From IMG/VR virus record IMGVR_UViG_3300038393_003172, positions 9,209 to 73,208 of that record: a DNA stretch of 64,000 nucleotides; one strand, given 5' to 3'. Positions 37,382-54,927 of the stretch are shown here, in pieces. Position 1 is the stretch's first letter. Each line of letters opens with the position of its first letter. Position numbers and translations under genes: made by a program. This stretch comes from a virus. Under the pieces are notes generated by a model. That model had not been told where the DNA came from. It saw nothing but the letters and a program-made list of their open reading frames with translations, and did not search any database.

Positions 37382-37392
37382 CGTGCATCCCT

Positions 37393-37902: not shown

Positions 37903-37904
37903 GT

Positions 37905-38459
37905 TCACCCCCGCTGCGGAAGGAAGGTCAGGGTGCCGTTGTCGATCTCGGCGGATATGCGCTCGCGCACTTCGCGCTCGGGCATGGTCAGTTCTTCTTC
38001 GTGCAGCCAGCCGCGGCGCATGAACCCCACGCTCCTGTAGAGCTCCGCGTCGGGCACGCCGCGGCGGATCGGCCTGTGCTGGTTCCTGCACAGCACCTTG
38101 CCCCAGCCCCACACCACGGCCCGGCCTCCGATCAGCAGCGGCTCGGACCGAAATTCTGAAATCCTGGCGTATTCCCTTTCCTGCACCATCGTGTCGAGCT
38201 TGGTGGCGTGGCCCCAGGCGATGGCGAAGGGCTCCCCGGTGCGGGGATGCAGCCGGACCTCAGCGCTGGTGAACGGGCACTCGTACTCCGGGTCGCCTTC
38301 GTCCGTGTACCACTCGTCAGCCAGCAACTCGTGGGAGGCGTTGGGGTCCAGCAGCAGCGCCAGCACATCGGCGTCCAGCGCCAGCAGGTCTTGCAAGCCC
38401 ACGTTGATGCGCTCGGCCATCTTTTTGATCTGCGTCTTCTGTTCTTCGGTCAGGTCCAT
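37905..38459 (-). CDS. Acidic hypothetical protein
   Basis: 184 aa, AAGGA RBS. Confidence 0.7.
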   Translation of the reverse strand: MDLTEEQKTQIKKMAERINVGLQDLLALDADVLALLLDPNASHELLADEWYTDEGDPEYECPFTSAEVRLHPRTGEPFAIAWGHATKLDTMVQEREYARISEFRSEPLLIGGRAVVWGWGKVLCRNQHRPIRRGVPDAELYRSVGFMRRGWLHEEELTMPEREVRERISAEIDNGTLTFLPQRG

Positions 38460-38486
38460 GGGGTTGGTTCCTTGCGGGGTGAAGTG

Positions 38487-38819
38487 TCAGGACAGCAGCC
38501 CATCGGCCGCCTGCGCTGCGTCAAGCGGCAGCACCTGCAGCGTCGGGTGGCGCTTGGCGGCCAGCAGCATGAGGGTCCAGCGGGCGTTGGTCATCGGGCG
38601 GTCGCCGCGCTCTATCTCGCCGATGGCCTGTGCGTCGGTCAGGCCGATCAAGTGGGCCGTCTGTTCAAGCGTCCAGCCCATCGCCAGCCGCAGCTCGCGC
38701 ACCTCCAGCCCGCTGGGTGTGGGCAGTTCGGGGAAGATTGCAAGCGGCGGTGCCTTCTTGGGGCCACGCTTCCCGGGCGTGCGCGGGGGTGCCGCCGCGG
38801 TCGTGGTTGCTGTGGACAT
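38487..38819 (-). CDS. XRE-HTH repressor (KorC/Aca-like), candidate binder of operator B
   Basis: PSGLEVRELRLAMGWTLEQTAHLIG...ERGDRPMTNARWTLML..KRHP; operator B in its own promoter. Confidence 0.8.
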   Translation of the reverse strand: MSTATTTAAAPPRTPGKRGPKKAPPLAIFPELPTPSGLEVRELRLAMGWTLEQTAHLIGLTDAQAIGEIERGDRPMTNARWTLMLLAAKRHPTLQVLPLDAAQAADGLLS

Positions 38820-38849
38820 GAGGGAGCCTCCGGGTGGTGGTGTATTCAT

Positions 38850-38878
38850 ATATTAGGTGATTTACCCAAGAGTTTCAT
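38850..38878 (-). promoter_or_regulatory. Promoter with operator B
   Basis: ATGAAA-17bp-TAATAT on the minus strand; TTAGGTGATTTACCCAA at 38853-38869. Confidence 0.75.
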
Positions 38879-38901
38879 CCTCCGCAGCCAGGGGGCGCCG
38901 C

Positions 38902-41900
38902 TTACAGCCGGTGCGCCGGCAGGGGCAGGCCCTGCCGCAAGAAGCCGTGCCGATCCTGCTCGTGCTGGTACACGTCGAAGCGGCCCATGTCGCACAGCGC
39001 CAGCCTGGCGTCCAGCAGGTCTTTGCGGAACCCGCGGGGGGTGTCGGGGCGCTCGCCGCGCTCCACAGCGAACGCCTCGCGGACGAACATCTGTAGCTCG
39101 AGCGCCGTCTTAGGCAGGTGGCTCAAGTCCTCCGGAGGGGGCAGGGGGCGGAACAGCATCATGTGAGGCTCCTTGGTACTTCAGGGGAGTCAGGGGGCGT
39201 GCCCAGCATCACGGTCCATCGCCAGATCGAAGGTGCGGCTGTCAACGGCCAGAGGCACATCCGGGCAGGTGCTGCGCATGTGGGCCGCATACCCGCCGTC
39301 GTCGCCGGGTGGCAGCGTCAGCCCTGGGTTTGCCATGTCAGCGGCCAGTTCCTCGGCCAGCGCGTCGTCTGCCCAGCCGTCCAGCATCGCCCGCGTGTGC
39401 GTGCGGACCTCATGGCCCAGCACCAGCAGCAGCGCGCCCACAAGGTCGTCGGCCTCGCCCAGCACGTCCACGTCCGCGGTGTCGGGCTCGTCGCGGCTGG
39501 CGCTGGTGATGGTCACCGACAGCGTGACCTCGTACTGCAGCGCGGGCCGACCATCGAGGCCGCCTTTCTTGGTAGGGTGCTGGCGCACCTGAATGCCGTA
39601 GCAGCCCAGCTCCAGGCCGTCATCGGCGCTGTCGATGCTCACCCGGGCAGGCTTCAGCCCGTCGATGTAGCTGAACGGGCCCGATGAGGGCTGCCCCTTC
39701 AGGAACTCGGCCAGGAAGCGGGCCGCGAAGTCCAGTTGGTCGTCGGTGATGCGGTACATGGTGTGGCTCCTTCAGGGCATGGCGGGGAACACGTTGTGGG
39801 CAGGCAGGCCCAGTGCCTCGCGCCGGCCGGCTTCTTCAAGAACAGTGCCGATCAGGTCGGACGCGATGTAGGCGGCCTCGGGGGTGTGCATGCCCCAGGT
39901 GAGCCCGTACTGCGCCACCAGCGCCCGGTAAGCGGCCTGCGCCTGTTCGCGCGTGTAGGGGTCCACCCAGGTCAGCGCCAGCCGCGCCAGCAGTTCCACC
40001 TGGTTTCCGGCCTCGTCGTGGTGGAGGCCGCACTTGTCGCCCACACCCGCGCGCGGTGTGAAGGTGAACGTGAACCGCTGGCGCTGGCTGCCTGGCACCG
40101 GATGCTTGGTCATCGTGCCGACCACTGAGCGGTTTGCGCGGACGTACTTCGTGCCGCAGGCGGTCCAAATGTCGAAGGTAGGCATGGCGGTGTCCTCCGG
40201 GTCAGGATTCAGTGGCGGGCTTGGCGGGCATGTTCTCGGTGTTCCAGATGCTGCGCACCAGCGCGCGCACCTGCTTGATGCCGGCTGGCGACAGCGCAGC
40301 GATGTGCCGTGGGGCCTCGCGCTCAGCCCAGAAGCGCAGGCGCTGCGCCTCCAGCTCGGCCTCGATCTCCTGGGTGATGGGCTGCGCATAGGACGAATCC
40401 CAGGACGATCCCTGCACCTTGCCGGTGGCGCGCGTCAGCCGGGAGCCTCCATCGCACACCACAACCGTGGGCGTGATGCGCTCAACGGTCAGTGCGCGCC
40501 AGAGGCCCCCTTGCTGCACAGCCAGCCGGTCGCCGGGCTTTACGTCGGGGTTCCAAGTGCTTTTCATGGGGTAGGCCCTCTCGTTGCGGTCAGGCAGTGC
40601 AGGTAGAGGCGGCCATGCGCAGCAGCTTGTCGGCGAGCTTGCGGCTGACCTTCAGGCGCTCGTTGTGGTGGCGCTGCAGCGCGGAGCCCTCGCCTGCGGC
40701 CTTGTAGCCCGCGAGGTCGTAGTTGTCGCTCCGGTTCAGGGCTTCCAGCAGGAACTTGAAGTCGGCGCCTGACAGGGCTTCATCGTCGGCGTCGGCGGTG
40801 GTATGGGTGATGGAGGACACAGTTCGGTTCCTTTTCGTGGGCAGCAGTGAAAGGGCGGTGATGGGTCAGGCGGCGGCGGTGCGGGTATGCAGCAGCGCGG
40901 CCAGCTCGGCGTTGCGCTGGCGCTCGCTGGCCAGGGAGGCGCGCAGCGCGGCGGCCTCGGCCTCGGCCTGCAGCGCGCGCGCGTGCCAGCCGTGCAGCCC
41001 CTGGGTCCACCACTCCTGCCCTGGGGGCACGGCGGTTGGGGCCTGCACCAGCGAAGCAGCGTTGGCGATGGCTGCGCGGGCGCCAGGCAGCCATGCCGAG
41101 AGAATCAGGCTCCCTTCCTTGTTGGCGATCTCCACGCGGCCCACTGCCGCCTGAAGGGATTCCACAAGATCGCGCACGGCGTCGCGATGTTGCAAAGAGG
41201 TATTCATGGCAGGGCCTCAGACGACAGCGGCACGGGGCACGCTGATGTGGTTGGGGATCGTCCAGCAGTCATCCAGCAGGAACATCAGAACGGCGTAAGC
41301 GGCCTGCGCGCGCTTGACACAGATGGCGTGGTAGGCCATCGCCCGGCTTGGCCGCGCCTCCAGCCATTCCACGTGAGCCAGGCGCAGCGCCTCCAGCCGC
41401 GCGGGCCAGCCGCGGCGCTTCTTCATGCGCTCCACGGTGGGGAGGCGCAGGCCGCCCGGGTCGGCCACGAAGCCGTTCACCTGGCGCACAAAGGCGTTGC
41501 ATTCCTCGGCCACCTCCAGCGCGCACGCCGCGTCCTCGCGCTGCCGGCGCTCGGCTTCCTGATCGTCAAGCTGCCTGCGCACCAGGGCCTTGTATCGGTT
41601 CTCTGCCGCTACTCCCATGTCGTTCTCCTTCAGGCGGCGCGCTGTGCGCCGTGCTGCAGTTGGTCGGTGGTCATGCGCTCGATGCGCTGCAGCTCGTAGC
41701 GCAGCACGTTGAGCGCGGTGTCGCAGGCGGGGGCGAAGGGGGAGGCAGTGCCGGCGCTGTGAACGCGCTCCGCAGCACGCTCCCGGGCTGCCTGCGCCAG
41801 CAGCGCGCGCTCGGATTCGGTAGTGGTGCTCATGCTGGTGCCCCCTGTCACGCGCTGCGGGTGGCCGCGATCCGCAGCTCGGCGCGGCGCAGCTCGTCGT

Positions 41901-42784
41901 TGAGAAGGTCGATGGCGGCGCGCGCCGTCAGGTGCTGCCGGATGCCGTCCACCGAGGCGGGGTCGCTGCCGTGCGTGGTGCTGCGGGCGATCAGCTTGGC
42001 GAGCCGGGCGTCTGCGGCTGCGCTGCTGCAGGTGGGGTCGCCAAACTCGGCCTCAACAAGCTGTCGGGCGTTGGCTGCCATGCCCTGCAGCAGCTTGCGC
42101 AGGTGCTCGTCCTGCTCGGCGCGCGTGATGTGCAGCACCGCCAGGTTGGAGATGTGCGAGGCGGTGCGGCTGGCGTCGGTGTTCATGTCAGGCTCCGGTG
42201 TGGAAGGTGCCCAGCAGCGCCAGCGCGGCACGGCCCCGCTTGGCGATGGCGTCGGCGTCGAAGTCGCCGTTGGGCTCGATGGCCCAGGAGGGCGGTTGCT
42301 GCTGCACCCCGTGGCCCGTTGACAACTCTGTGTGGGCCGTCGCCGCGCGCAGCGCATCGGACAGCGCCGGCACGGCATCCGCTATGCGGCACAGGCGCTT
42401 GAGCTCTGAGGTGGCCTTGGCGCGGCCTTGCACGGTGCCTTTCTCCAGAAGGGTCAGCAGGACGGGCAGCGTGCCCTCCCAAGTCATGCGCAGGTCGATG
42501 GTCTGCTGTGCGGGGGCGGGGGCCGGCGCAGGTGCCGGGATGGGCAGCCGGAACCCCGGGCGGCGCCAGCAGGTGGTCACGGCCTCGCCGCTGCAGTTCC
42601 GGGTGGCGCCTGACGGCATACGCTCGGGGGCGTCGATGCAGTAGCAGGCGGCGTCATAGGTGATGCCCTGGAAGTCGGCACGCAGGTTGTCCTCGGTATA
42701 GGCGGCCGACGCCAAGGAGCCGGTGCCGTAGAACAGGGCAAAGCCGGCGTGTGGCGTTTCGGGGGTGACGGCGGGCAGGGGCAT
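38902..42784 (-). CDS. Ten small hypothetical genes (38902-39162, 39190-39759, 39772-40185, 40202-40567, 40590-40820, 40866-41207, 41217-41618, 41630-41833, 41848-42186, 42188-42784)
   Basis: Head-to-tail minus-strand ORFs, most with GGAG/AGGA RBS; no recognisable family. Confidence 0.65.
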
Positions 42785-42851
42785 GTCGGGTGCTCCGTGG
42801 TTAGGCGGGGAACGGGGGGAGCCCGGTGCGGGGCTCCCCTTGAGCGGTGCG

Positions 42852-44261
42852 TCAGGCGGTCTTCTTCGCGCCGCGCTTCGCGGGCACCTTCACCGGGGCC
42901 GCTTCAGCGGCAGGCGCTGCGGCGGCACCCTTGCGCGCCTTCGTGCTGCTGCTGCGCGCGGCCTTGGCAACGGCCTGCTGCACTGCCTGCGCCACCTCCG
43001 GGGTGGGGGCCTGCTCGGGCTGCGCGGCATCCTCGGCCGCGAGCTGCACCGGCTCGGCGCTGACGGCCTGCACCGGGGCCTGTTCCTCGGCCGCGCCAGC
43101 CGTCGCCAGCTCAGGCACGGGGGCCTCCACCGTGGCCTGCTCCGGGGCCGGCTCGGCGGCAGCCGCAGCGGCAGCCAAGTTCAGCGTCACGGCAACCGCC
43201 GAGGGCGCCGTCTCCGACACGCTGGCGCCAGCCTTCGCGCACATCTCGCGCAGCGCCTTCCAGGCGTTCAGCTTGATCGCCTCGCCAGAGCCAAACCAGG
43301 CGCTGTCCAGTCGAGTGCTGTTCGTCTTGCGGCGCTCGTGGTCAACGAACTCGGTCACGCTGTTGAGCAGCGACCATGCGTTGCCCTTGCCGCACAGGTT
43401 GGCGCCGATCAGCTTGCCGTCGAACAGCTCCATCACCCGCTTGTAAGCCTTGCTGCGGCGCACATCGGGCAGCGCCTTACCAGGGGGCAGCGACTGTGAG
43501 GACAGCAGCACGTCCGCCACCAGCGCGTCGGCCTGCGCCTCGGTCACGTCCACCTGCGCCATCAGCCGGGCCTCGACAAGCCAGCGGTCCCAGGCGTTCA
43601 CCACGATCCCCAGGCGCTGGCGCACCTCGTCGGCCTTGAACTTCGTCATGTGCGGCACCCGCACACACTGCACGACAGGCCCTTCCGTGGTGTCCCGCTC
43701 GGTCTGCCTGCTTCCGTTCGCCATGGATGCGCCTGCAGCCATCGTCAGCGTGTTGTTGCACACCACGCGCACCGCGGTGAACTTGGCCGTGGTGGACATG
43801 GAGCCGTCGAAGCTCGTAGCGAGCAGCACATAGGGGCGCACCTGATCGTGGCCCACCACCGGGGCACCGTCGTTCACCCGCGCCAGCCCCCAGATGCGCT
43901 TGCCGTCCAGCAGCGAGCCGGCGGTTTCCAGCGTGAAGCCGCCGGCCTCGGCCAGCTTTCCGAAGAAGTCCAGCACCTCGCCCGGCTGGACCACCTTGTA
44001 GCGGCTGCCCACGATGCCCAGCTCCGCGCCGGTATCGCTGCGCACCAGCGCGTGGCCGCCGCTGACAGGGTGCAGGGGGCTGTCCTCCCCGCGCTGGAAC
44101 ATCAGCGCGGCGCGCTCCACGCTCCAGTCCAGCCCCGCCTCGCGGCGCCAGGTTTCGAGGTCGGCGCCAGCCGACAGGCGCTGGCCCAGGCCGTGCCACG
44201 GGGTTTCACCCACGAAGGCGATTGCGTCACGGCCGGTGGTGTTGTCGATCAGGTGAGCCAT
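42852..44261 (-). CDS. DUF932 family phage/plasmid protein with Ala/Glu/Pro-rich tail
   Basis: GETPWHGLG, AGLDW.V, VRSDTG..LG.VG.RYKVVQP, ETAG.L..GKRIW.LA, S.DGS, RVVC.NTL, TEFVDH, WFG.G. Confidence 0.9.
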   Translation of the reverse strand: MAHLIDNTTGRDAIAFVGETPWHGLGQRLSAGADLETWRREAGLDWSVERAALMFQRGEDSPLHPVSGGHALVRSDTGAELGIVGSRYKVVQPGEVLDFFGKLAEAGGFTLETAGSLLDGKRIWGLARVNDGAPVVGHDQVRPYVLLATSFDGSMSTTAKFTAVRVVCNNTLTMAAGASMANGSRQTERDTTEGPVVQCVRVPHMTKFKADEVRQRLGIVVNAWDRWLVEARLMAQVDVTEAQADALVADVLLSSQSLPPGKALPDVRRSKAYKRVMELFDGKLIGANLCGKGNAWSLLNSVTEFVDHERRKTNSTRLDSAWFGSGEAIKLNAWKALREMCAKAGASVSETAPSAVAVTLNLAAAAAAAEPAPEQATVEAPVPELATAGAAEEQAPVQAVSAEPVQLAAEDAAQPEQAPTPEVAQAVQQAVAKAARSSSTKARKGAAAAPAAEAAPVKVPAKRGAKKTA

Positions 44262-44336
44262 TTGTATCTCCAGAGCGCCCGCGTGGGGCAGGTTGAGGGT
44301 CCAATTGGGTAGCGCCTTATTGCGCCGCCGTGAGGT

Positions 44337-44366
44337 AAATTTAGGTGTTGCGCCCAATGGTTGCAA
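44337..44366 (-). promoter_or_regulatory. Promoter with operator B
   Basis: TTGCAA-17bp-TAAATT; TTAGGTGTTGCGCCCAA at 44341-44357. Confidence 0.8.
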
Positions 44367-44398
44367 GGTAATTCATCATTCCTTGCCCCCCTGTTTGG

Positions 44399-44413
44399 GT
44401 AGCGCCGCGCTAC
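44399..44413. promoter_or_regulatory. Operator A
   Basis: Perfect GTAGCGCCGCGCTAC. Confidence 0.8.
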
Positions 44414-44431
44414 ATGCAGCGCACAGAAAAA

Positions 44432-46117
44432 CTAGGCGGCGCGCTGCGCAGCCAGCAGGGCAACGGACACGCTGGTGCCAGCGAAGGCGTTGTCGTGCTG
44501 GCGCGACCATTCGTGCTGCAGCCCCGGCAACACGTCCTTGCCGCGCATGCCTGCAGGCAGCACGGCCACAAGGCGGCCCTTGGGTGCGAGCAGTTGTGAC
44601 GCGGCCTCGATGTGCGCCTGCGCGCGGCCCTGGCTGAAGGGCGGGTTCATCACGATGCGGTCGAACGTGCGGCCCTGCTGGCGCATGGCCTCGGCCCACT
44701 GCAGGAAGTCGGCCTCATGCACTTCCGTAAATCCCTTGGCCTTCAGGATGGTGCAGTGCAGGGGGCTGATTTCCACGCACGTCAGCCGCTCGCGCGGCAG
44801 GTGCTCGGCGATGCCGCCGTGGCCCGCGCTGGGCTCCAGCACGGTGTGGCCTTCGCCGATCTGTGCCATCTCGACGGCCTGCTGCGCCAGCGCCTCGGGC
44901 GTCGGGTAGAACTGGTGGGCCTGCTGGTCCGGGATGCAGCCGCTGGAGACGATCTCAGCCAGCACATCGGCCGGGCAGTAGTCGAACTCAAAGGCGTCCG
45001 GGTCCTTGCCCCGCTGCGTGCCGCCGATGGCCTGCAGCACCGCGCGCGCCTGCTGGCGCACATGCTTGTCGGTGCTGGTGCCGTGCGGGTAGTACTTCAG
45101 CACGCGCGTGTTGTGCAGGCGGTGCCAGCGCTCCGGGTAGCCCCCCGGGTTCGTGCGCTCATGCACCGGCTCGGACGCTTCCAGCAGGCCCAGCACCGCG
45201 AAGGGCAGCGGGCGGCCCATCATCACGAATTCCTTGTGGGGCTTCTTGGGCTTGGTGCGGAACTCGCTCGGTATGGCTGCGGGGTGCAGGTAGGCCAGCA
45301 CCTGATTGAGCCGCACGGCCATGTCGGGATGCACCTCCAGATGACCGTTGCCGTTCAGGTACACCCGCAGGCGCAGCGCGCCGCCATCCAGCGTCAGCCA
45401 CTTGCCAGGCTGGCGCTTCTGTGCGTTCTCCACGATCTTGTTGGTCGCATAGTGCGGCGGTTCGTCCCGCCCCATGAAGCGCGCGATCACCACACGCAGG
45501 TCGTTGATGAGCCCGCACCTGCCGCCATAGCTGCCCCATTCGTTGAGCACGTTGGTCAGGATCATTCGCTTGAAGAACCCCTCGGGCCTGTTCGTGACGT
45601 GCTCCCGGGACAGCCCTTGGAAGATGCCGTCCACGCGCTCCGCGAAGAACCGCTCCCGCGAGTGCAGCAGCTCCGCGATGGTAGACAGCACGGATTCACG
45701 CTCGAAGGCCGGCGTGGCGTGCGTCCTGATGGCCTCGTGCCATTCGTCCCGGCGTGCCTTGGGCATGTGGTTGAGCACGTCCGTCAGGCTGATGGCCTCC
45801 TGCCAGAAGTAGGCGTTGAGCGCTGCCATGGCGCCAGCGGGGGCGAACAGCTCCTTCACCGTGGCGCTGATGCTGTGGCGCCGGTCCTTGTCGGTGTTGC
45901 CGTCCACGAAGTAGCTGAACACGCCCCCCAGCTCCCCCTCCATGGTTTCGGCCAGCCGAACGATGCGCAGGCGCGCGGCCTCGTACCGGCCGAACAGGGA
46001 ATCCAGTGCCCCCGTGGGTGCTGGGGCGAAGAACTGCGGCGCGTCGTCATCGACCACCTCGCAATGGGCTGGCGCTGCTGCAGCGGCCACGTCGAAATCC
46101 AGCGTGTCTTGTGTCAT
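44432..46117 (-). CDS. DUF4942-type SAM-dependent DNA methyltransferase
   Basis: LS.EHVTN.P.GF.KRMI, H.EVHPDMA.RLN, QFYPTP, LEPSAG.G, MNPPF. Confidence 0.88.
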   Translation of the reverse strand: MTQDTLDFDVAAAAAPAHCEVVDDDAPQFFAPAPTGALDSLFGRYEAARLRIVRLAETMEGELGGVFSYFVDGNTDKDRRHSISATVKELFAPAGAMAALNAYFWQEAISLTDVLNHMPKARRDEWHEAIRTHATPAFERESVLSTIAELLHSRERFFAERVDGIFQGLSREHVTNRPEGFFKRMILTNVLNEWGSYGGRCGLINDLRVVIARFMGRDEPPHYATNKIVENAQKRQPGKWLTLDGGALRLRVYLNGNGHLEVHPDMAVRLNQVLAYLHPAAIPSEFRTKPKKPHKEFVMMGRPLPFAVLGLLEASEPVHERTNPGGYPERWHRLHNTRVLKYYPHGTSTDKHVRQQARAVLQAIGGTQRGKDPDAFEFDYCPADVLAEIVSSGCIPDQQAHQFYPTPEALAQQAVEMAQIGEGHTVLEPSAGHGGIAEHLPRERLTCVEISPLHCTILKAKGFTEVHEADFLQWAEAMRQQGRTFDRIVMNPPFSQGRAQAHIEAASQLLAPKGRLVAVLPAGMRGKDVLPGLQHEWSRQHDNAFAGTSVSVALLAAQRAA

Positions 46118-46156
46118 GGTCAGGGCTCCTGTCGTTGGTAGGTGTGCAGGGGAAGG

Positions 46157-46828
46157 TCAGGCAGCGAGGGGCACGGCAGGTGCAGCGGTGCCAGCCGCGC
46201 GCGTCACTGCAGCCTGTGCCTCGGGCGGGAGGTCGGCCACGGGCACGCAGTCGCCGGTCTGGTCGTAGAAGTAGAGCTCCATCTGCCCCACGTCCGCGCC
46301 TGCCGCATAGCCCAGCGGCTGCAGCACCTCGGACAGCCGCGCCGCGGTGCCCAGCAGGTCCAGTTCCTCGCGCACGTTCTCCACCACCTGGTCAAAGTCG
46401 TCCTCGCGGTTCCTCTGCACCATGTCCACGGCCTTGCCCGTGGCTGCCTGCAGCGCGGCGGCATCGTCGGCCGCAGCAGGGTGGAGGGGCTGGCGCAGCC
46501 GAATGTCGAAGTACTCGGCCAGCGTCACGGTCGGCGTGTTGGTGGCCGTGTCGGCCAGCGTGAAGAACCCGGGCATGTCGTAGAAGCGCCGGGCGCGCTG
46601 CAGCACCGGCTCCGCGTCGACGCCAGCCAGCACGGGCAGCTTGGCCTCATGCCTGCCCGTGACCATCAGCACGCCGCTCGCGGGGTCGTACACGGCAGCA
46701 GTGATTTCCTCGCTGGGCATCCAGCCTTGCACCTCGGCGGTCAGGTCGTGGAAGGGGGCGCTGCAGTGCGCCAGCGCGAACGAGGCGGTGGGGCAATCGG
46801 CAAGCGTGAAGTCGGCCTTTTTCGACAT
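46157..46828 (-). CDS. Acidic hypothetical protein
   Basis: MSKKADF start after CAGGAG. Confidence 0.7.
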   Translation of the reverse strand: MSKKADFTLADCPTASFALAHCSAPFHDLTAEVQGWMPSEEITAAVYDPASGVLMVTGRHEAKLPVLAGVDAEPVLQRARRFYDMPGFFTLADTATNTPTVTLAEYFDIRLRQPLHPAAADDAAALQAATGKAVDMVQRNREDDFDQVVENVREELDLLGTAARLSEVLQPLGYAAGADVGQMELYFYDQTGDCVPVADLPPEAQAAVTRAAGTAAPAVPLAA

Positions 46829-46885
46829 GGTGTGCTCCTGTGCCAGCAGGCGGGTTGCGGGTTTGGTTCGTGCTGGCATGTCGTG

Positions 46886-46989
46886 ACATTAGGCGTGACA
46901 CCAAAATGATTGAATCAGAAACACGGATTTCTTACCCCCTCATCGCGGGATGCGTTGTCGTTGAATCTTTTTGGTGTAGCACCTAATGT
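46886..46989. promoter_or_regulatory. Back-to-back promoters, each with operator B
   Basis: Minus: TTCAAT-17bp-TAATGT with site 46889-46905. Plus: TTGAAT(46961)-17bp-TAATGT(46984) with site 46970-46986. Confidence 0.8.
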
Positions 46990-47032
46990 TGTCGCATGCA
47001 AACGCGCAACGCAACCTGAAAGGAGCGACGGC

Positions 47033-47860
47033 ATGCAGGTCAAATTGATCGTGGGCGCGACCCACGCCTATGTGTGCATCACGAAGGAAAACGGCGGGTC
47101 GCTGGACTGGCGCCTGGACGGCGGGTGCGGCCCCGTGGCCGACCTGCGGCGCCAGATCGAGCGCGAGCGCGCAGACATCGCGCGCCGCGAGGCGCGGCTC
47201 GCCACGCTGGCCGAGGCCGCCGCGGTGCTGGAACTCAGCGGCCATCGGTGAGGGTGCAGCCATGCAAGCCCCTGACACCAAGCCCGGCGCCTACTTCGTC
47301 AGCGTGCAGGACGGTGACCGCTTCGCTGCCGCCCTCGGCCCGTTCGTGGACGACCACGCGGCTGCGCTGGCGCAGATCGAGGCCGTGCGCGCGCTGGCGC
47401 AGCGGCTGCAGCCCCGCGCCGCGTTCTACGCCTTCGGCACCTGCCGCCTGGACCACGACCACCCGCAGGCGCAGCGGCCCGGCACGCTGAACGACTACTT
47501 CCCGGCGCTGGCGCTGCCAAGCCGTGCCGCCTGGGTGCAGCAGCAGGGAGCAGCCGCGTGAACGCGCGCGCTGTGTACCGGGCCGTCATGCGGTGCTACC
47601 GCATCGCGCGGCGCGACCCGATGAACGTGGCAGGGTTCGTGGCCGCCACCGGCGCTGTGCGCGAGCTGACGGGCGTTTGGGACGTGCCCATGCCCCCCAC
47701 GCCGCAGCAGCGCGCCGGGTGGGAACGGCCGCCGCGCTCGCGCTTCGTGCCTGCCGACTTCGGAGGCCCCGAGCGCGAGGTGCTGACGCAGCCGGGCCGC
47801 CTGTGCGTGTGGCGGTCCATGACGCTGTTCTGCAGGCGCACGCGCGCCGCCCCCCGCTGA
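47033..47860 (+). CDS. Three small hypothetical genes (47033-47251, 47262-47561, 47558-47860)
   Basis: AAGGAG RBS after the plus-strand promoter; coupled ORFs. Confidence 0.65.
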
Positions 47861-47975
47861 CGCCTGCGGCTGCCTGCCGCAGCACCCGCCCGGCCAGCGC
47901 CGGGCGTTGCCGTTTGTGCGCCTGGCTGCCCGGTGCCTGCGCACCTGCAGCGCCAGCGCGCGGCGCCAATGCGAA

Positions 47976-47995
47976 CGGGGGCCGAAGCCCCCCGA
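47976..47995. terminator. Hairpin between convergent operons
   Basis: CGGGGGC-CGAA-GCCCCC(C)G. Confidence 0.5.
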
Positions 47996-48018
47996 GGTGT
48001 TGTGTGTGCGCGGCTCGG

Positions 48019-48285
48019 TCAGGGAGCCGCGAGGTGCTCGTAGAGCTCCGGGTGGCGCCGCTGCATTTCGTCGGTGGCGATCTGCAGCGCCTGGGCCTCG
48101 TCTGCGGGCAGGCTGCGCACATAGTCGCCCTCGTACCGGAGGGTCAGGCGTCCGTTGCGCACCCGCACGGTCAGGAACCCGTCGCCATCGGCGCACCATG
48201 CGCGCGCCTGCGGGTAGAAGGTCCAGACGATTGCGCCGGCGCGTTGCGTGCGCAGCGCAGCGGGCGGGGCAGAGGGGGCTGGCAT
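48019..48285 (-). CDS. Array gene, hypothetical
   Basis: Preceded by variant motif CCCTGCTACCCGCACAGGAG. Confidence 0.6.
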   Translation of the reverse strand: MPAPSAPPAALRTQRAGAIVWTFYPQARAWCADGDGFLTVRVRNGRLTLRYEGDYVRSLPADEAQALQIATDEMQRRHPELYEHLAAP

Positions 48286-48329
48286 GACTGGCTCCTGTGC
48301 GGGTAGCAGGGAAACGGGGGATGGCTCCA

Positions 48330-48977
48330 TCACCACAGGTGGCAGTTGTCGCCATAGTCGCCGTCCTCCAGCGCCTGCACGCTGGGCATCAGTTCCACGA
48401 CGGACTTGTCGGGCTCATCAATGCTCTGCGCCCACACCAGAGCGACCTTCCCGTTGGGCAGGTACACCCGCACGTAAGGCCCACCGCCGCGGTCCTCGTC
48501 GTACTCGACCCGGATGGGGGGCGCCTCCTGCGCCTGCGTTGGCGCGGCTGCAGGTGGGGCCGCAGGTGCTGGCGCTGGGGCAGGTGCTGGCGCAGCGAAG
48601 CAGGCGAGGGCCGTGCGCCGGGCAGCACTGAAGCTGCCGTAGGCGTTGCCCAGCAGCGCCAGTGCCGCGTCCTGCGTGATGGCCTCGCTGATGTTCTCGA
48701 TGCCCGCGGGACCGCCGCTCCAGCGCGCGCGGTTGCCCTCCAGCGCCATCACCAACTGCTCGCGCGCTTCGTCGTCGGTCTTGGTGGGGTCGCTGGCCTG
48801 CGCGCGCAGCACGTCACGGGTGGCTTCCTCCAGCGCGCCGAGCGCCGCGAGCAGTTGCGCGCGCGCCTCGCACTGGCGCTGTCGCGCTGCCTGGTGCTGC
48901 TGCCGCACCGCAGCCAGCGCCGCGGGGTGCGGCTGCGCCGGCGTTTCCGTGGCAGGGGGGGAGATCACGTTGCTCAT
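48330..48977 (-). CDS. Array gene, LPNGK-domain paralog 3
   Basis: PYVRVYLPNGKVALVW. Confidence 0.7.
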   Translation of the reverse strand: MSNVISPPATETPAQPHPAALAAVRQQHQAARQRQCEARAQLLAALGALEEATRDVLRAQASDPTKTDDEAREQLVMALEGNRARWSGGPAGIENISEAITQDAALALLGNAYGSFSAARRTALACFAAPAPAPAPAPAAPPAAAPTQAQEAPPIRVEYDEDRGGGPYVRVYLPNGKVALVWAQSIDEPDKSVVELMPSVQALEDGDYGDNCHLW

Positions 48978-49020
48978 GTGGGGCTCCTTGGGGGTGTGCG
49001 TGAAAGGGGGGTGAGGGGCG

Positions 49021-49338
49021 TCAGATGCGGGGCGGCATCTGCGCCAGCACCAGCGTGAAGGCGGCGTTCCACAGCGCGGTTTCGGCGTCGTGCTCCGCTT
49101 CGCTGCGCCGGCCTTCCTCAACGTCGCTCGGCAGCACCGGCTCGCGCCCGTGCAGGTCTTCGAACGCGGCAGCCATGAGCATGTTCGTGTCCAGCGGCGC
49201 CTCTGCGGTGCCGGCCAGCACCTGCGCCAGCACATCGGGCAGCAGGTACTCGCGCAGGAGCTGCACGTAGCGCCCGGCCAGTTCCAGCGGGGTGCAGAGG
49301 GGGGCGACGGGGGCGGGGGCAAGGGTCAGGGCTTCCAT
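49021..49338 (-). CDS. Array gene, acidic hypothetical
   Basis: D.NM.MAAAF and LWNAAF; preceded by the motif. Confidence 0.7.
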   Translation of the reverse strand: MEALTLAPAPVAPLCTPLELAGRYVQLLREYLLPDVLAQVLAGTAEAPLDTNMLMAAAFEDLHGREPVLPSDVEEGRRSEAEHDAETALWNAAFTLVLAQMPPRI

Positions 49339-49371
49339 GTGCGGCTCCGGGTAGGCGGGAAACGGGGGGGC

Positions 49372-49785
49372 TCAGAACGCGTTGCGCCACATGCGGCGGT
49401 CGGCCTCGACGCAGGCGAGCGTGTCGTACAGGTTCGCCAGCCGCTGCTCGGCACGGTGCAGGGGAACGCCGGCCTCAAGCCGCGCATAGGCTGCCTTCAG
49501 TCGGCGCGCACTGAATGCCTGCTCAACGCGCCGGATGCGCCGATACATCAGCGCCTCGGCGCACTCCCAGGGTGCGGTGCGCTGCAGCCGGGCGAGCAGC
49601 CCCTGCTCGTGCTCCCGGTTCTGCCGCAGGTATTCGCCGACGCTGCGCCGTTCCTCGCGGCGGTTGCGCCCGTAGAACAGGGGCTCCTTCGGCTGCAGCG
49701 GCGCACCGGGCTTGCGCCGCTGCTGGCGCTGCACGGCACGGGCGATGTTCTGGCGACGGCGGATCAGGGGGGTGATGGCGGTCAT
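49372..49785 (-). CDS. Array gene, Arg-rich hypothetical
   Basis: GAGGA RBS; MTAITPLIRRR. Confidence 0.6.
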   Translation of the reverse strand: MTAITPLIRRRQNIARAVQRQQRRKPGAPLQPKEPLFYGRNRREERRSVGEYLRQNREHEQGLLARLQRTAPWECAEALMYRRIRRVEQAFSARRLKAAYARLEAGVPLHRAEQRLANLYDTLACVEADRRMWRNAF

Positions 49786-49795
49786 GGCTGCGTCC

Positions 49796-50155
49796 TCATC
49801 CCTGCGCTTCGTTGGCCTGCTGCGCTGCACGCGCTGCCTGCTCCTGCATCAGCCGGTGCATCTGCAGCACACCGGGCAGGCGCCACTTGAGGAACTGCAG
49901 CGCCTGCTCCCGCAGGTCCTGCTCCTGCGCGTTGCGGGCGAGGCAGCGGGCCTCCCCCTGCCACGTTGCGCTGGCGCTGCTGGCGATGGTCACCAGATCC
50001 GCGCGCGCCGCCTGCTCATTCGGTGCGGCGCACACCGTGGCGATCAGCATGGCCTCGTTGGCGTCGTGCATGGCCTGCGCGGCGCACTCGAAGGCTTTCA
50101 GCGCGGCACGCTGGGCGTCCACGGCCTGCAGCCGGGCTTCGGTTTCGGGGGTCAT
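49796..50155 (-). CDS. Array gene, helical hypothetical
   Basis: Preceded by the motif and AAGGAG. Confidence 0.7.
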   Translation of the reverse strand: MTPETEARLQAVDAQRAALKAFECAAQAMHDANEAMLIATVCAAPNEQAARADLVTIASSASATWQGEARCLARNAQEQDLREQALQFLKWRLPGVLQMHRLMQEQAARAAQQANEAQG

Positions 50156-50197
50156 GGTCGTTGCTCCTTTGGGGGTAGGCGGGAAATGGGGCAGGGG

Positions 50198-50524
50198 TCA
50201 GAACGGGATGTCCTCGAAAGCTGGCAGCGGCAGTGCATCGGCCGCCTCCTGTGCGGCGCGCAGGGAGTCGGCGTCGTCCCACCAGCGGATCGGCGGCATC
50301 ACCTCCACCGTGTCCACGCCAGCGCGGCGCGAGGCCCACGCGATGGACGTGGCGCTGCACTCGTCCGTTGCGCAGGTGAGCACCACCAGGTCGTCGGTCT
50401 GCGCCAGCGCGCGCCGCGCCATGCAGACGGCCAGCGCGGCGGTTTCGTAGCAGTAGCCGTGGATCGGCTGGCTGATGAACGCGCCGTTGTCGTCAACCGG
50501 GTGGAAGGCGTGGATGGTGAACAT
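50198..50524 (-). CDS. Array gene ending in EDIPF
   Basis: Preceded by the motif; SSB-like C-terminal tetrapeptide. Confidence 0.7.
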   Translation of the reverse strand: MFTIHAFHPVDDNGAFISQPIHGYCYETAALAVCMARRALAQTDDLVVLTCATDECSATSIAWASRRAGVDTVEVMPPIRWWDDADSLRAAQEAADALPLPAFEDIPF

Positions 50525-50561
50525 GGCAGGTGCTCCGGGTAGGCGGGGAAGCGGGGTACGG

Positions 50562-50930
50562 TCAGTCGCGGGATTCGAGGAAACGGGCCACGTCGCGGCG
50601 CGTGCGCAGCTTCACGGGTCGGTATTCGGTGCGCTGGGGCAGGCCACCGCCGGTGACCAGCACCGGGTCCAGCGCCTGCACCGCACCGCAGGGCAGCAGC
50701 TCGCAGTCGTATCCGTTGCTGTGCAGCCACTGCAGCATTTCGTCCTGCTCGGCCGTGGCGCCTGCGGGCAGCACGAGGTCCAGCGCGAGGACGGTGCAGC
50801 GGTGGTAGGTGTCGCTCACCTGCTGCACAGCGTGTTCCGGGTCGGCTGCCTGCACGCGCGCGGTGCCGCAGGTGCCAGTGGGGTTGTCCCAGTCCTCGGG
50901 GAAGCAGTAGAGGGCGTCGTAGGCGGGCAT
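50562..50930 (-). CDS. Array gene, hypothetical
   Basis: Preceded by the motif. Confidence 0.7.
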   Translation of the reverse strand: MPAYDALYCFPEDWDNPTGTCGTARVQAADPEHAVQQVSDTYHRCTVLALDLVLPAGATAEQDEMLQWLHSNGYDCELLPCGAVQALDPVLVTGGGLPQRTEYRPVKLRTRRDVARFLESRD

Positions 50931-50961
50931 GGTGGTGCTCCGGGTAGGCGGGCAGGGAGGG

Positions 50962-51195
50962 TCAGTGCAGGTAGGGGGCAGCCGCAGCGTGGGCCTCGGT
51001 CAGCCGGTAGGCGGCAGCCAGCAGCGCGTCGTCGCTGCGCAGCAGCAGCGCGCACTCGCGGGCATGTTGTGAGGCCTCGCGGTGCGCCGGGCCACGCACG
51101 CAGTCGGGCACGTCAGCCAGCGCAGCGCGCACGCGCGCCAGCTCGGTGGTCAGGTGCTGGCGCAGGCCAGCAGCGGAGGCAGGGTTCAGCGTCAT
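50962..51195 (-). CDS. Array gene, hypothetical
   Basis: Preceded by the motif. Confidence 0.65.
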   Translation of the reverse strand: MTLNPASAAGLRQHLTTELARVRAALADVPDCVRGPAHREASQHARECALLLRSDDALLAAAYRLTEAHAAAAPYLH

Positions 51196-51228
51196 GGTGG
51201 TGCTCCTGTGGGTAGGCGGGCAGGGGTG

Positions 51229-51543
51229 TCAGGTGCGGTGTGCGCGTGGGCGGATGGCGTCGGCCACGCGCCGCGCGCGCAGCCACGGGTCCGTGTGGTA
51301 GGCGCGGCAGTAGCCCCGCTCCAGCGCATAGGCCCATGCAGCCTCGTGCGTTTCGAACTGCAGGCCGTCCGCGTCCAGCCGCTTGAAGCGCCCCTTGCCG
51401 CCCCACTGGTTCGTGAGGTCCGGGTACAGGCGCGCGACCTTCAGCGTGTGGACCGTGCCGCCCCCGTGATGCACGGAAACGCACACGGGGGGTTGGCTGG
51501 CGGTCACGGGCTCCTGGGTGCAGGTGAGGCGGCGGTTGGTCAT
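51229..51543 (-). CDS. Array gene, hypothetical
   Basis: Preceded by the motif; DG.QFET.EAA..YAL.RGY. Confidence 0.7.
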   Translation of the reverse strand: MTNRRLTCTQEPVTASQPPVCVSVHHGGGTVHTLKVARLYPDLTNQWGGKGRFKRLDADGLQFETHEAAWAYALERGYCRAYHTDPWLRARRVADAIRPRAHRT

Positions 51544-51571
51544 GGCTGGCTCCGGTGTGCGGGTAGGCGGG

Positions 51572-51898
51572 TCACAGCAGGCCGAGGCGCCGCGCGTGTG
51601 CGTGCAGCTTCTGGCGGGTGTTGGTCAGGTCAGCCGCTACGTGCCGGGCCTTGCCCTCCTGCACCAGCAGTTCGATCACCTCCAGCCGCAGGTCCGTGTC
51701 CGGGTCAACGACCGGGGGGGCGGCGTTCTGCACCCGGCGCAGGCGGTCGGCTTCCTCCTGTGCCTGCTGCGCCTGCCGCTGCGCGCGCTGCTCCGGGGTT
51801 TCCGGCGGCAGGGGGGGCATGGACAGCAGCTTCTGCACAACCCGCAGCAGGCGGGCATCGACGCTGGACAGCGGCAGCAGGGGCGGGGTGGCGGGCAT
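51572..51898 (-). CDS. Array gene, hypothetical
   Basis: Preceded by a variant motif. Confidence 0.65.
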   Translation of the reverse strand: MPATPPLLPLSSVDARLLRVVQKLLSMPPLPPETPEQRAQRQAQQAQEEADRLRRVQNAAPPVVDPDTDLRLEVIELLVQEGKARHVAADLTNTRQKLHAHARRLGLL

Positions 51899-51937
51899 GG
51901 CGGGGCTCCGGGGGGTGTGCGTACAGGGGGGCGGGTT

Positions 51938-52270
51938 TCAGAAGCGCACGTACTGCGCGCCGCTGTCGGTGGGGTCGGTGTCGGCGGTGGGCAGCAGCAC
52001 CACCGCGCACAGGTCGCCTTCCTCGGCCATGGCGTCCGGGTACACATGCAGCGCCTTTCCGCCCGGGAGGGTGATGTGCAGGTACGGGCAGGTCACATCG
52101 CCCTCCCGCTGCACCTGCACACCCGTGATGGGTTCGAAGGGCTCGGCATAGGCCATGTCCGCGCGCTGCTGCTGCCTGTACGCCTCCTCCTTCCAGCGGG
52201 CGGCTTCTTCGCGCGCCGCCTGCAGTTCGGCCAGCAGTTCATTCCGTTCGTGGTCAGGCATCAGTTCCAT
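51938..52270 (-). CDS. Array gene, LPNGK-domain paralog 2
   Basis: EPITGVQV...PYLHITLPGGKALHVYP; preceded by two motif copies. Confidence 0.7.
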   Translation of the reverse strand: MELMPDHERNELLAELQAAREEAARWKEEAYRQQQRADMAYAEPFEPITGVQVQREGDVTCPYLHITLPGGKALHVYPDAMAEEGDLCAVVLLPTADTDPTDSGAQYVRF

Positions 52271-52324
52271 GGCGGGCTCCGGTGTGCGGGTAGGCGGTGC
52301 GGGGGGGTAGGCGGGGGCAGCGGC

Positions 52325-52699
52325 TCACCACGCCTGCGAATGCGCAGCGGGGGTGCCGGATTCCATGGCGTCCACGCTGGCGTGCAGTTCGACCGCGCTG
52401 CTGGATTCGTCGTCCGCACTGCGCGGGTACACGCACAGCGCCTTCCCGTTGGGGAGGTAGATCACGAGGAAATCGCCGGCCCCCATATCGCTGCAGGTGT
52501 CCACCTGCACCCCCGGGATCGGTTCGCTGCGCTGCGGGTGCGCCTGCACCGGCTGCGGCTGGCGCAGTTCAGCGGGCACCGGCACACCTGCGCGGCTGGC
52601 TGCGGTCAGCACCGCCTGCTGTGCAGCGGCCAGATCGCGCAGCGCCTGCGCATAGGTTTCGACGGCCTGCAGGTGGGCACGGATGGCGGGGGTATTCAT
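52325..52699 (-). CDS. Array gene, LPNGK-domain paralog 1
   Basis: EPIPGVQV...FLVIYLPNGKALCVYP. Confidence 0.7.
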   Translation of the reverse strand: MNTPAIRAHLQAVETYAQALRDLAAAQQAVLTAASRAGVPVPAELRQPQPVQAHPQRSEPIPGVQVDTCSDMGAGDFLVIYLPNGKALCVYPRSADDESSSAVELHASVDAMESGTPAAHSQAW

Positions 52700-52729
52700 G
52701 GCGGGGGTTCCTGTGTGTGCGTGTAGGGG

Positions 52730-53227
52730 TCAGGCTGCGGCGTGGCAGGAGCGCACCGCGTCGTCCGCGCGCACCAGCAGCGGCAGCACCGCGTCGGCGC
52801 CGCAGCGGTCCAGGGCCTGCACGAAGCGGCGCACCCGGGCCAGCACCGCACGGGTGGGCAGGTGCCCGGTGCGTGCCGCTGCAGCGCCCTCCCGCGCCAT
52901 GCGCGCCAGTTCGTGCGCACCGGGCACAGGCAGCCGGGGCAGTTCGGCAGCAGCGGCGTCCAGCACGTCCAGCAGCGCGGCGTCCGGCTGCCCGGCTGCG
53001 GGGGCGGCAGGGGCAGGACGGGCCACGCGCCAGCCGGTGTCCGAGTCCAGCACCACGACCCGGGCGCCATCCAGCCCGCTGCGCTGCGCTGCTGCCTGCT
53101 GGGCAGCCTCCAGCGTGTCGAACGGCGGGGTGTGCATGTCGAACGCGGTCACCTGCACTGCGCCGCTAGGCGGCTGCTTGCGGGTGCGGCGGGCGGGGGC
53201 GGTGGATTGGTAGGCGATGCGGAACAT
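52730..53227 (-). CDS. Array gene, hypothetical
   Basis: MFRIAYQ start after the motif and CAGGAG. Confidence 0.65.
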   Translation of the reverse strand: MFRIAYQSTAPARRTRKQPPSGAVQVTAFDMHTPPFDTLEAAQQAAAQRSGLDGARVVVLDSDTGWRVARPAPAAPAAGQPDAALLDVLDAAAAELPRLPVPGAHELARMAREGAAAARTGHLPTRAVLARVRRFVQALDRCGADAVLPLLVRADDAVRSCHAAA

Positions 53228-53264
53228 GGCGGTTCTCCTGTGCGGGTAGGCGGGCGGGGGGTGT

Positions 53265-53666
53265 TCAGCGTGCGTTCGGCACGAACAGGGCAGCGAAGGC
53301 GGCGTCTGCGGGCAGGCCCAGCGCGCGCACCGTCTGCACCGCATCCAGCGGCGCGGCGTTCACCCGGGCAGGCACTGCCGCGACGGCCTGCGTCTGCGCA
53401 GCCGGCACGCCCAGCACCAGCACCACGGCAGCCAGCAGCGCCAGTGCAGCGGTCAGCAGCGCCTGCAGGAGGCCCCGCTGGGCACGGGCAGCAGCGGCAG
53501 CGTCCGCAGCCATGGCGTCAGCGCGCGCATCCCGGGCCTCCTGGCGCGTGCGGTACACGTCCACGGGGGCACCGTCCCGCACCAGCGTCCAGCCGATTTG
53601 CTGGCGCGTGGCACGGCCGGTTTGGGGATTCAGGGCATAGGCGCGCTTCACTTGGTAGGTGTGCAT
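53265..53666 (-). CDS. First array gene, membrane-anchored hypothetical
   Basis: MHTYQVKR start after GGAG; hydrophobic helix near the C-terminus. Confidence 0.65.
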   Translation of the reverse strand: MHTYQVKRAYALNPQTGRATRQQIGWTLVRDGAPVDVYRTRQEARDARADAMAADAAAAARAQRGLLQALLTAALALLAAVVLVLGVPAAQTQAVAAVPARVNAAPLDAVQTVRALGLPADAAFAALFVPNAR

Positions 53667-53754
53667 ATATGGCTCCGGTTGGCGCACGCACAGCACCGCG
53701 CGCGCGTGGTGCGCTGCGTTTGTGGCGGTGTCTTGTGTGCGGTGCATGGGTGAA

Positions 53755-53818
53755 ACATTAGGCGTAGAACCCAATAGTTGTAGCCCCGCATTCCTGGGTA
53801 TATGTAGCGCCGCGCTGG
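53755..53818 (-). promoter_or_regulatory. Array promoter with operator B and an adjacent operator A
   Basis: -10 TAATGT; TTAGGCGTAGAACCCAA at 53758-53774; GTAGCGCCGCGCTGG at 53804-53818. Confidence 0.75.
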
Positions 53819-53860
53819 CATATTAAGTGCCGCCCTTATATATGCGCCCGGTGCTGCTGA

Positions 53861-54561: not shown

Positions 54562-54590
54562 TTGTGTGTCCGATAGCGCGGCGCTACAAT
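54562..54590 (+). promoter_or_regulatory. Rightward promoter overlapped by operator A
   Basis: TTGTGT-17bp-TACAAT; ATAGCGCGGCGCTAC at 54573-54587. Confidence 0.7.
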
Positions 54591-54845: not shown

Positions 54846-54927
54846 GCGGACGTAGCTCAGACGGTAGAGCAGGATCGGCCAGCCAAGGCCACGGTCCCGG
54901 TCGCTGGTTCGATTCCAGCCGTTCGCG
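54846..54927 (+). tRNA. tRNA-like RNA (Gly-GCC-like) with an abnormally extended anticodon arm
   Basis: Acceptor GCGGACG/CGTTCGC; D-arm GCTC-AGACGGTA-GAGC; T-arm GCTGG-TTCGATT-CCAGC; 16 nt between GGATC and GGTCC. Confidence 0.8.

Follow-up and report, generated by a model that had tools for sequence, protein, structure and literature searches.

A 17-bp inverted repeat at five predicted promoters suggests a block-wide regulon in a provirus

Aca repressors bind inverted repeats in the promoters of acr genes. The controller (C) proteins of restriction-modification (R-M) systems use paired operators at the -35 element of a single R-M promoter, and they both activate and repress. For Aca-type repressors, the control of several operons has already been published (PMC13551039). 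In plasmid RP4, the antirestriction gene klcA is under repression by KorA as well as KorC and undergoes about 120-fold induction on entry, in transconjugants (PMC7314908). Here we describe a 17-bp repeat, which we call operator B, in a provirus. We analyzed a 64,000-nucleotide stretch of DNA (the window), which is bases 9209-73208 of the 73,208-base IMG/VR record IMGVR_UViG_3300038393_003172. (CheckV puts the completeness of this record at 61%.) Operator B occurs five times, and all five copies are in one accessory block, at about 36995-53666. We are fairly confident that the repeat is real and non-random, and that it is best read as a set of repressor operators that defines a block-wide regulon.

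A repeated operator and the promoters around it

The pattern TTAGGYG-N4-RCCMAA (TTAGGYGNNNNRCCMAA) has five exact matches in the window, at 38853 (+), 44341 (+), 46889 (+), 46970 (-), and 53758 (+). In 100 dinucleotide-preserving shuffles, this pattern had a mean of 0.00 matches, and none of the shuffles reached five. An earlier note on this DNA had reported an imperfect inverted repeat at these five positions (with 46970 in reverse), so that observation stands. Across the whole 73,208-base record, we found the same five sites and no further copy, and a reversed control pattern had no matches at all. There are no sites with one mismatch in the window. Allowing two mismatches adds three places (24102, 36711, and 39110). 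Against an expectation of 5.53, this class totals 12 matches (including palindromic double hits), a count that 3 of 100 shuffles attained, so sites with two mismatches do not exceed chance.

The consensus pattern was built from the five sites themselves, so we added queries with single 20-mers. At 14 or more identical positions out of 20, the five queries recovered 3, 4, 3, 4, and 4 of the other four sites. The expectation, from 100 first-order Markov sequences, was 0.26-1.97 hits.

The dyad can be written as TTrGG-N7-CCyAA. Positions 1-2, 4-5, 13-14, and 16-17 pair in all five sites. At position 3, the gene-proximal half always has an A (which is part of the -10), and the distal half has G or T. 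The two TTrGG half-sites are 12 bp apart, centre to centre.

Each copy lies in a predicted promoter. B1 (38853-38869, minus strand; TTGGGTAAATCACCTAA) has a -10-like TAATAT at 38850-38855 and a -35-like ATGAAA at 38873-38878, and its 50-nt run is at percentile 0.33 of the block for guanine-plus-cytosine (GC) content. B2 (44341-44357, minus strand; TTGGGCGCAACACCTAA) is upstream of a DUF932 gene, with TAAATT at 44338-44343 and TTGCAA at 44361-44366. B3 (46889-46905, minus strand; TTTGGTGTCACGCCTAA) is the leftward half of a divergent pair, with TAATGT at 46886-46891 and TTCAAT at 46909-46914. The rightward half is B4 (46970-46986, plus strand; TTTGGTGTAGCACCTAA), which is 81 bp from B3 and has TTGAAT at 46961-46966 and TAATGT at 46984-46989. 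Finally, B5 (53758-53774, minus strand; TTGGGTTCTACGCCTAA) heads an array of small genes, with TAATGT at 53755-53760 and a weak -35-like CTACAA at 53778-53783.

In promoter orientation, all five have the same layout: a -35-like hexamer, 3 nt, TTKGGYNNNNYRCC, and then TAATAT, TAAATT, or (three times) TAATGT. The spacer is always 17 nt. The last three bases of the operator, TAA, are also the first three bases of a TAAnnT -10, and the TAA half of B is on the gene side in every case. The earlier note had claimed that the repeat fills most of the 17-bp spacer and the first bases of the -10, and this holds in the same register at all five sites. Measured from the -10's end, the next start codon with a Shine-Dalgarno sequence is 30 nt away for B1 (XRE gene, 38819), 76 nt for B2 (DUF932 gene, 44261), 57 nt for B3 (46828), 43 nt for B4 (47033), and 88 nt for B5 (53666). 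(B1 was also said to be in the promoter of the XRE gene at 38487-38819, and we agree, given that it is 30 nt upstream of the start.) Of the seven 50-nt runs with the lowest GC in the block, five are at B sites (percentiles 0.33-2.69). Every larger intergenic gap that we identified in the block has one B site, and the divergent gap at 46829-47032 has two.

Three of the five B promoters have CATGC 5-7 nt past the TAATGT (46874-46880, 46995-47001, and 53743-53749). This could be the region of the start site, or it could be a methylation target, in a phage with at least three DNA methyltransferases. At three sites there is also an ATG 6-7 nt after the -10. We considered leaderless mRNAs and rejected them: there are starts further downstream that are preceded by Shine-Dalgarno sequences, and at 46970 the early ATG opens a frame of just seven codons.

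A second operator in the same window, operator A (GTAGCGCNGCGCTAC), provides a parallel. It has 27 matches with up to three mismatches, versus 9.65 expected, and none of 100 shuffles reached 27. Exact or near-exact copies are at 7126, 11785, 19565, 19588, 20975, 20996, 21044, 23839, 44399, 53804, and 54573. The clusters at 19.57-19.60 kb and 20.98-21.06 kb mark the immunity region. At two promoters that are clearer than those of B, operator A fills the 17-nt spacer and gives TAC to the -10. These are TTGCTG-17-TACAGT (21033-21061), which is a PR-like promoter of the immunity region and has the same geometry as B, and TTGTGT-17-TACAAT (54562-54590). The fact that A has this spacer-plus-first-three-bases design as well favours a repressor-operator role for B. 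Downstream of the A site at 54562-54590 are HNH, ParB-methyltransferase, and terminase genes, which raises the possibility that immunity control acts directly on the packaging operon.

Operator A is also found next to two of the B promoters. A copy without mismatches (44399-44413; GTAGCGCCGCGCTAC) is 33 nt upstream of the -35-like hexamer of B2, and an A-like copy with two mismatches (53804-53818) is 21 nt upstream of the -35-like hexamer of B5. The arrangement of sites implies that A and B would jointly control the B2 and B5 promoters.

We propose that the five 17-bp near-palindromes are operators of a dimeric, block-specific repressor. Since the last bases of the operator double as the first three of the -10, a bound dimer would keep RNA polymerase off the -10 by steric occlusion. 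The five promoters would head five transcription units, with about 33 open reading frames (ORFs) at 36995-53666. (This count for the ~17-kb block is from a reading of the ORFs based on GC at third codon positions, or GC3.) The most likely binder would be P0001, the product of the XRE gene. With an operator in its own promoter, P0001 would regulate itself negatively and would throttle the block in a coordinated way. The promoters at B2 and B5 would also answer to the main immunity repressor, via operator A. What we infer here is that the promoters are active, that they are repressed, which protein binds, and when the genes are expressed. We consider the full model (a dimeric repressor, with P0001 as its likeliest identity, and coordinated control of five units) to be evenly balanced between right and wrong.

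The candidate repressor and other explanations

P0001 (110 amino acids (aa); 38487-38819, minus strand) is the candidate B-binding autorepressor, and its start codon at 38819 follows GGAGG. It matches HTH_3 in Pfam (PF01381; helix-turn-helix, HTH) across residues 40-74, with E = 1e-5 and 25.9 bits versus a cut-off of 23. In an AlphaFold2 (AF2) model, the mean predicted local distance difference test score (pLDDT) is 77, and helices at 37-47, 51-57, 63-71, and 78-87 have pLDDT of 90-96. A fifth helix, at 99-108, is modelled with lower confidence, and the basic N-terminus is disordered. We are confident in the predicted five-helix, lambda-repressor-like XRE fold.

The more specific affinities of P0001 are weak. 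In a Foldseek search, C.AhdI ranked first (E = 5.7e-3), and the other neighbours were HipB, C.Esp1396I, C.Kpn2I, C.BclI, Aca10, and P22 c2. These neighbours are XRE-type dimeric operator-binding repressors, and all of the matches are weak (E from 6e-3 to 5e-2). In a sequence search of the PDB, the best match was also C.AhdI (E = 0.027). A profile of the P0001 family had no match in the PDB below E = 0.26, with a C protein at E = 0.42. From NCBIfam we obtained only sub-threshold matches to HTH proteins of the HipB and MqsA antitoxin type; from PADLOC, Control_protein (E = 5.6e-4, 18.3 bits) and capH (E = 3e-3); and from PHROGs, no match. P0001 is a generic XRE-domain protein, and we place it in no named family.

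The P0001 family comprises 10 clusters with 52-73% identity, which come largely from Logan assemblies. In helix 3 of the HTH, all of the sequences are almost the same. The members also have a conserved basic N-terminal arm (residues 12-24), with KRGRPKK in Azohydromonas and KRGPKK in P0001, which we take to resemble an AT-hook. In a genome with 70% GC, such an arm would be apt for binding to -10 regions rich in AT.

We then compared the promoters of the homologues. Four species of Azohydromonas in the genome collection have homologues of P0001 (~50% identity), at five loci. A whole-genome pattern search added a sixth copy from Azohydromonas (L213), whose frame is interrupted by stops. The Joint Genome Institute (JGI) metagenomes have one locus (L091, ~50% identity), with no B-like site upstream, and IMG/VR has no relatives by either the single protein or the family profile. 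Among 38 window proteins searched against the Azohydromonas loci, only P0001 and its paralogue P0002 match. Across six promoters (the phage and the five Azohydromonas loci), one block alone is invariant upstream of the gene: CCTAA-AT, which precedes the ATG by ~35-45 nt. On the bottom strand, four of the five promoters from Azohydromonas have TTAGGCG, which matches the consensus for the B half-site. One locus, L006, has both halves, with a centre of 6 nt rather than 7 nt. The strict core TTKGGN7CCTAA is absent from L006-L010.

Taken together, the analysis shows the sites themselves, the register that they share, and their confinement to the block; it also shows that they stand at every operon start and that P0001 has an HTH fold. 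The earlier note had proposed that one repressor governs a ~16-kb regulon with five promoters and more than 30 genes. The block-specific sites at every operon start and their geometry fit this proposal; P0001 would be the likeliest repressor.

Several results weigh against our interpretation. A scan for consensus promoters flagged none of the five B promoters in the proposed orientation. (Its sole hit near the B sites, GTGACA-16-AATGAT, is on the opposite strand, across the 46889 site.) At best, these are weak promoters of the sigma-70 type, and their assignment comes from position, orientation, and AT-richness, not from consensus strength. The comparative support is thin. The left (distal) half-site is absent from three of the five Azohydromonas promoters. 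In the four Azohydromonas genomes, exact copies of the conserved promoter block are found at XRE genes only, and the counts with three mismatches equal those of the reversed control. Because the conserved block includes the -10, conserved promoter function alone could explain the CCTAA-AT block. Also, there are alternative binders: about 30 uncharacterised small proteins and the paralogue P0002. Finally, DNA of this phage is present in seven soil or rhizosphere DNA metagenome runs, and partly in an eighth, and none of these eight is an RNA run. (From four of the eight, as contigs only, we obtained no starts or ends.)

It is unlikely, in our view, that the regulon is real with another protein as its binder, so that P0001 is just one of the regulated genes. 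That binder might be P0002, a cryptic small DNA-binding protein from the block, the ParB-like/methyltransferase fusion (55438-57120), or a host factor. The main candidate is P0002 (199 aa; 35835-36434, minus strand), whose gene is just outside the block and adjoins it. Its N-terminal HTH is paralogous to that of P0001 (BLASTP: 25% identity over 73 residues, E = 2e-5), but their recognition helices are different, with EVMTWSNCERR in P0002 and DAQAIGEIERG in P0001. Upstream of P0002, a degenerate B-like site (36711-36727, minus strand; TTGCGCGCAACGCCTCA) overlaps TTGACC-17-CATGAT, which is the only consensus-like leftward promoter in the AT-rich stretch that separates P0002 from a rightward ORF of 62 aa. 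However, this site has two mismatches, one in each half, and by itself it is at chance level. A cryptic regulator would be compatible with the Pfam results, as 25 of 28 scanned block proteins are below the cut-offs, and the left half-site that three of five distant homologues lack upstream also favours another binder. Against this, the TTAGGCG half-site accompanies P0001 homologues in a second genus, and finding an operator in the promoter of a regulator's gene usually points to an HTH repressor that is autoregulated. The alternative that B is a conserved core-promoter element for a phage-specific activator, sigma factor, or polymerase, with the block switched on as a temporal class, seems quite improbable. 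The poor hexamers would fit, since weak promoters often need an activator, and so would the conservation that extends into the -10 and, at three of five sites, to the CATGC 5-7 nt downstream. But the dyad, whose half-sites are about one helical turn apart, is the kind of site expected for a dimeric HTH protein rather than for a sigma factor or a single-subunit polymerase. As a rule, activators bind at the -35 or further upstream; those of the MerR type do bind in the spacer, but they need spacers of 19-20 bp instead of the 17 bp found here. Among the window proteins scanned (a part of the ORFs), there is no RNA polymerase or sigma family, and operator A has the geometry of B at a PR-like promoter.

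We give very little credence to the idea that the repeats have no role in transcription and are instead junctions for recombination or module exchange, or sites for partition or packaging, between operons. The phage does encode a protein with a ParB-like domain, and in one metagenome run, X7, the contig depth falls over ~44.9-49.3 kb and 51.8-54.07 kb, as might be seen if there are variants with modules replaced. But none of the breakpoints in depth (~44.93, 49.31, 51.81, and 54.07 kb) falls at a B site, and no integrase or recombinase is found among the block proteins scanned. Nor would a fixed register with the hexamers, or a constant orientation to the next start codon, be expected of such sites.

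A few more observations concern P0002. Its family has six members, with a conserved N-terminus and a conserved C-terminal part. In the public annotation, this ORF is called as 145 aa (P0013, from Met55), which omits the N-terminal HTH that is kept in all five homologues. Because of this conservation, the 199-aa form is more likely. The model of P0002 is of low confidence, with a mean pLDDT of 57. We also considered a separate operator for P0002, TGCGCAA, and rejected it: this motif is not enriched (18 found versus 23.7 expected).

Gene content and setting of the block

Besides P0001, the predicted XRE operon includes genes at 36995-38459 (minus strand), namely P0003 (37905-38459, 184 aa) and two ORFs of lower GC at 37393-37902 and 36995-37381. 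The B2 operon (38902-44261, minus strand) has the DUF932 protein (42852-44261), followed by some 10 small ORFs as far as 38902. (The XRE, B2, and B5 operons are ORF/GC3 readings.) The B3 operon (44432-46828, minus strand) has a 223-aa ORFan (46157-46828) and a DUF4942-methyltransferase protein (44432-46117, 561 aa). On the other strand, the B4 operon (47033-47860, plus strand) has three small ORFs, at 47033-47251, 47262-47561, and 47558-47860, and it may reach ~48300. The B5 operon (48330-53666, minus strand) has 13 small ORFs, from 53265-53666 down to 48330-48977. Spacers of the GGGTAGGCGGG type lie between these small array genes and recur across 48301-53254 (repeat families D5, D6, D13, and D15).

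Few of these proteins belong to known families. Of the 28 block proteins scanned against Pfam, three passed the curated cut-offs: HTH_3, DUF932, and the DUF4942-methyltransferase. PHROGs, with 18 block proteins, gave phrog_6263, phrog_1221, and two unnamed families, and PADLOC, with 8, matched the regulator alone. The DUF932 protein matches its Pfam family with E = 5.8e-52 and also phrog_1221. The protein at 44432-46117 matches DUF4942 (E = 3e-23) and MTS in Pfam and phrog_6263, a DNA methyltransferase family (E = 1.3e-176). The partners of P0001 in the XRE operon have no family match in Pfam, PHROGs, NCBIfam, or PADLOC. The ORFs of the B4 operon gave no family match. The other ORFs scanned from the B2 operon have no match above cut-off in Pfam or PHROGs. 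In the B5 array, 0 of 10 proteins scanned were above cut-off in Pfam, and 0 of 3 in PHROGs.

The general scans (Pfam for 28 block proteins, PHROGs for 18, PADLOC for 8, with no dedicated anti-defence library) found no known acr or named anti-defence family. The anti-defence role that was proposed for the targets is speculative, as it rests on one orphan methyltransferase and on analogy.

The lower-GC ORFs at the end of the XRE operon (36995-37902; 169 and 128 aa) look like a recently acquired two-gene cassette. The 36001-38000 bin has a GC of 0.58 versus ~0.69 for the block.

We searched for a second regulon like B via the DUF932 protein, the 223-aa protein, P0003, and DNA patterns, and found none in the records searched, which may lack some that are very close to this one. 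DUF932 has 151 relatives, of which we kept 80 loci. In 924,360 nt, these had 18 hits to the relaxed motif, with two or fewer per locus, and the closest loci have unrelated DNA upstream. In IMG/VR, neither the 223-aa protein nor P0003 has a relative, and for the former the ESM Atlas had no usable match. Scanning IMG/VR for the operator with its -10 gave at least 116 loci, with a single match each, and among the matches listed, none has GC above 0.62. Seven listed IMG/VR loci have two relaxed matches, but their GC is 0.30-0.37, so we rejected these as chance hits in AT-rich DNA.

The genome around the block has a lambdoid-type layout, according to PHROG matches of the window proteins, and a GC of ~66-72% across the window. 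On the minus strand, at 9.9-15.2 kb, are a RecT-like protein and methyltransferases. A DnaD-like loader is at 21741, the ParB-like/methyltransferase fusion at 55438-57120, the large terminase at 57539-59206, and the major head protein at 61898-63154. The block (mean GC 0.694) is between the rightward early genes and the packaging genes, and it reads mostly leftward, against the flanking replication and packaging genes. The ORF at 55056-55382, which looks by eye like an HNH endonuclease, adjoins the ParB-methyltransferase and terminase genes. We rejected a tRNA at 54846-54933, which ARAGORN does not call; the window has a single tRNA, tRNA-Ser(GCT), at 8766-8849.

Using megablast, we found that the block has a short match to the methyltransferase in two phage records and no matches in plasmids. 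In run X7, contig depth drops from ~2500 to tens over ~44930-49310 and ~51810-54070, while the flanks remain high. The same run has divergent contigs (117 other letters in 830) over part of the methyltransferase gene. Because of the drops in depth and the divergent contigs, X7 suggests a co-occurring phage variant with modules replaced.

Comparison with known systems

Like Aca1, Aca2, Aca10, and Aca14, which are small phage-encoded regulators, usually with an HTH, P0001 has an inverted repeat in the promoter of its own operon. Aca10 (7xi5_A) is also among its Foldseek neighbours, with a TM-score to target of 0.90 and 30% identity across 56 columns; at E = 1.9e-2, this match is weaker than the tool's 0.001 mark. 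In contrast to the Aca systems, P0001 is the first gene of its own operon, not the last, the sites are at five promoters with about 33 genes, and no known acr or named anti-defence gene was recognised among the scanned proteins of the regulon. Also, P0001 had no Aca-specific profile match in Pfam, PHROGs, or NCBIfam (these libraries may omit some Aca families). The earlier note had called the regulator KorC/Aca-like. This fits insofar as P0001 is a small XRE-type HTH protein; beyond that, the label is an analogy only. The same note described the regulon as far larger than typical acr-aca operons, which, with five promoters and about 33 genes, is fair by size.

The C proteins of R-M systems (C.AhdI and C.Esp1396I) are the best, though weak, matches to P0001 by sequence and structure. 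They are small dimeric XRE proteins with dyad operators at their own promoters, and one operon of the regulon has a DNA methyltransferase. But in this phage each of five promoters has one 17-bp site, placed in its spacer and -10, the methyltransferase belongs to another operon, 5.6 kb from P0001, and we identified no restriction endonuclease.

The lambdoid CI/Cro immunity operators, represented in this phage by operator A, are also dyads that overlap core promoter elements, with the same register of spacer plus TAC. Operator B differs from A in being restricted to the accessory block, with no copy in the immunity region, and it is found as single sites instead of tandem cooperative arrays, except for the divergent pair, 81 bp apart.

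In the kil-kor system of IncP-1 plasmids (RK2/RP4), with KorC and KorA at the klcA, kleA, and kleC promoters, one small repressor likewise controls several accessory or establishment promoters. Some of those promoters also have the operator of a second, global repressor, as do two of the five B promoters with operator A. The obvious difference is that kil-kor belongs to a plasmid. The likeness is functional, at the level of the DNA sites only, and is not a matter of membership. More speculatively, the phage might carry a plasmid-style kil-kor circuit of ~17 kb and about 33 genes, nearly all of them ORFans. Five operons would be under one autorepressor, with an AT-hook and an XRE domain, from a very small new family; two operons would also be under the immunity repressor; and there would be a burst of expression on entry or induction, followed by shut-off. 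We regard this fuller picture as tentative and rather doubtful.

If the circuit works as proposed, then one 17-bp motif would define a co-regulated set of about 33 phage genes without assigned function, including an orphan DNA methyltransferase and a DUF932 protein. The genes of the block have almost no relatives in public data, and shared control is one of the few handles on them. In scale (five promoters, about 33 genes, and ~17 kb), this regulon exceeds the systems in the available parts of PMC7314908 and PMC13551039, which is a comparison with those two sources and not a systematic survey of the literature for larger regulons. If the fuller picture is true, this would be the largest accessory (and possibly counter-defence) phage regulon described for a single repressor, with about 30 candidate effectors. 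This type of circuit is conventional, so the value would be in the gene set and the scale, not in the mechanism. The circuit, if it works, would also mean that the dual-repressor logic of IncP plasmids (KorA/KorC) has a counterpart in a phage, and that control of the Aca type can span a whole genome module.

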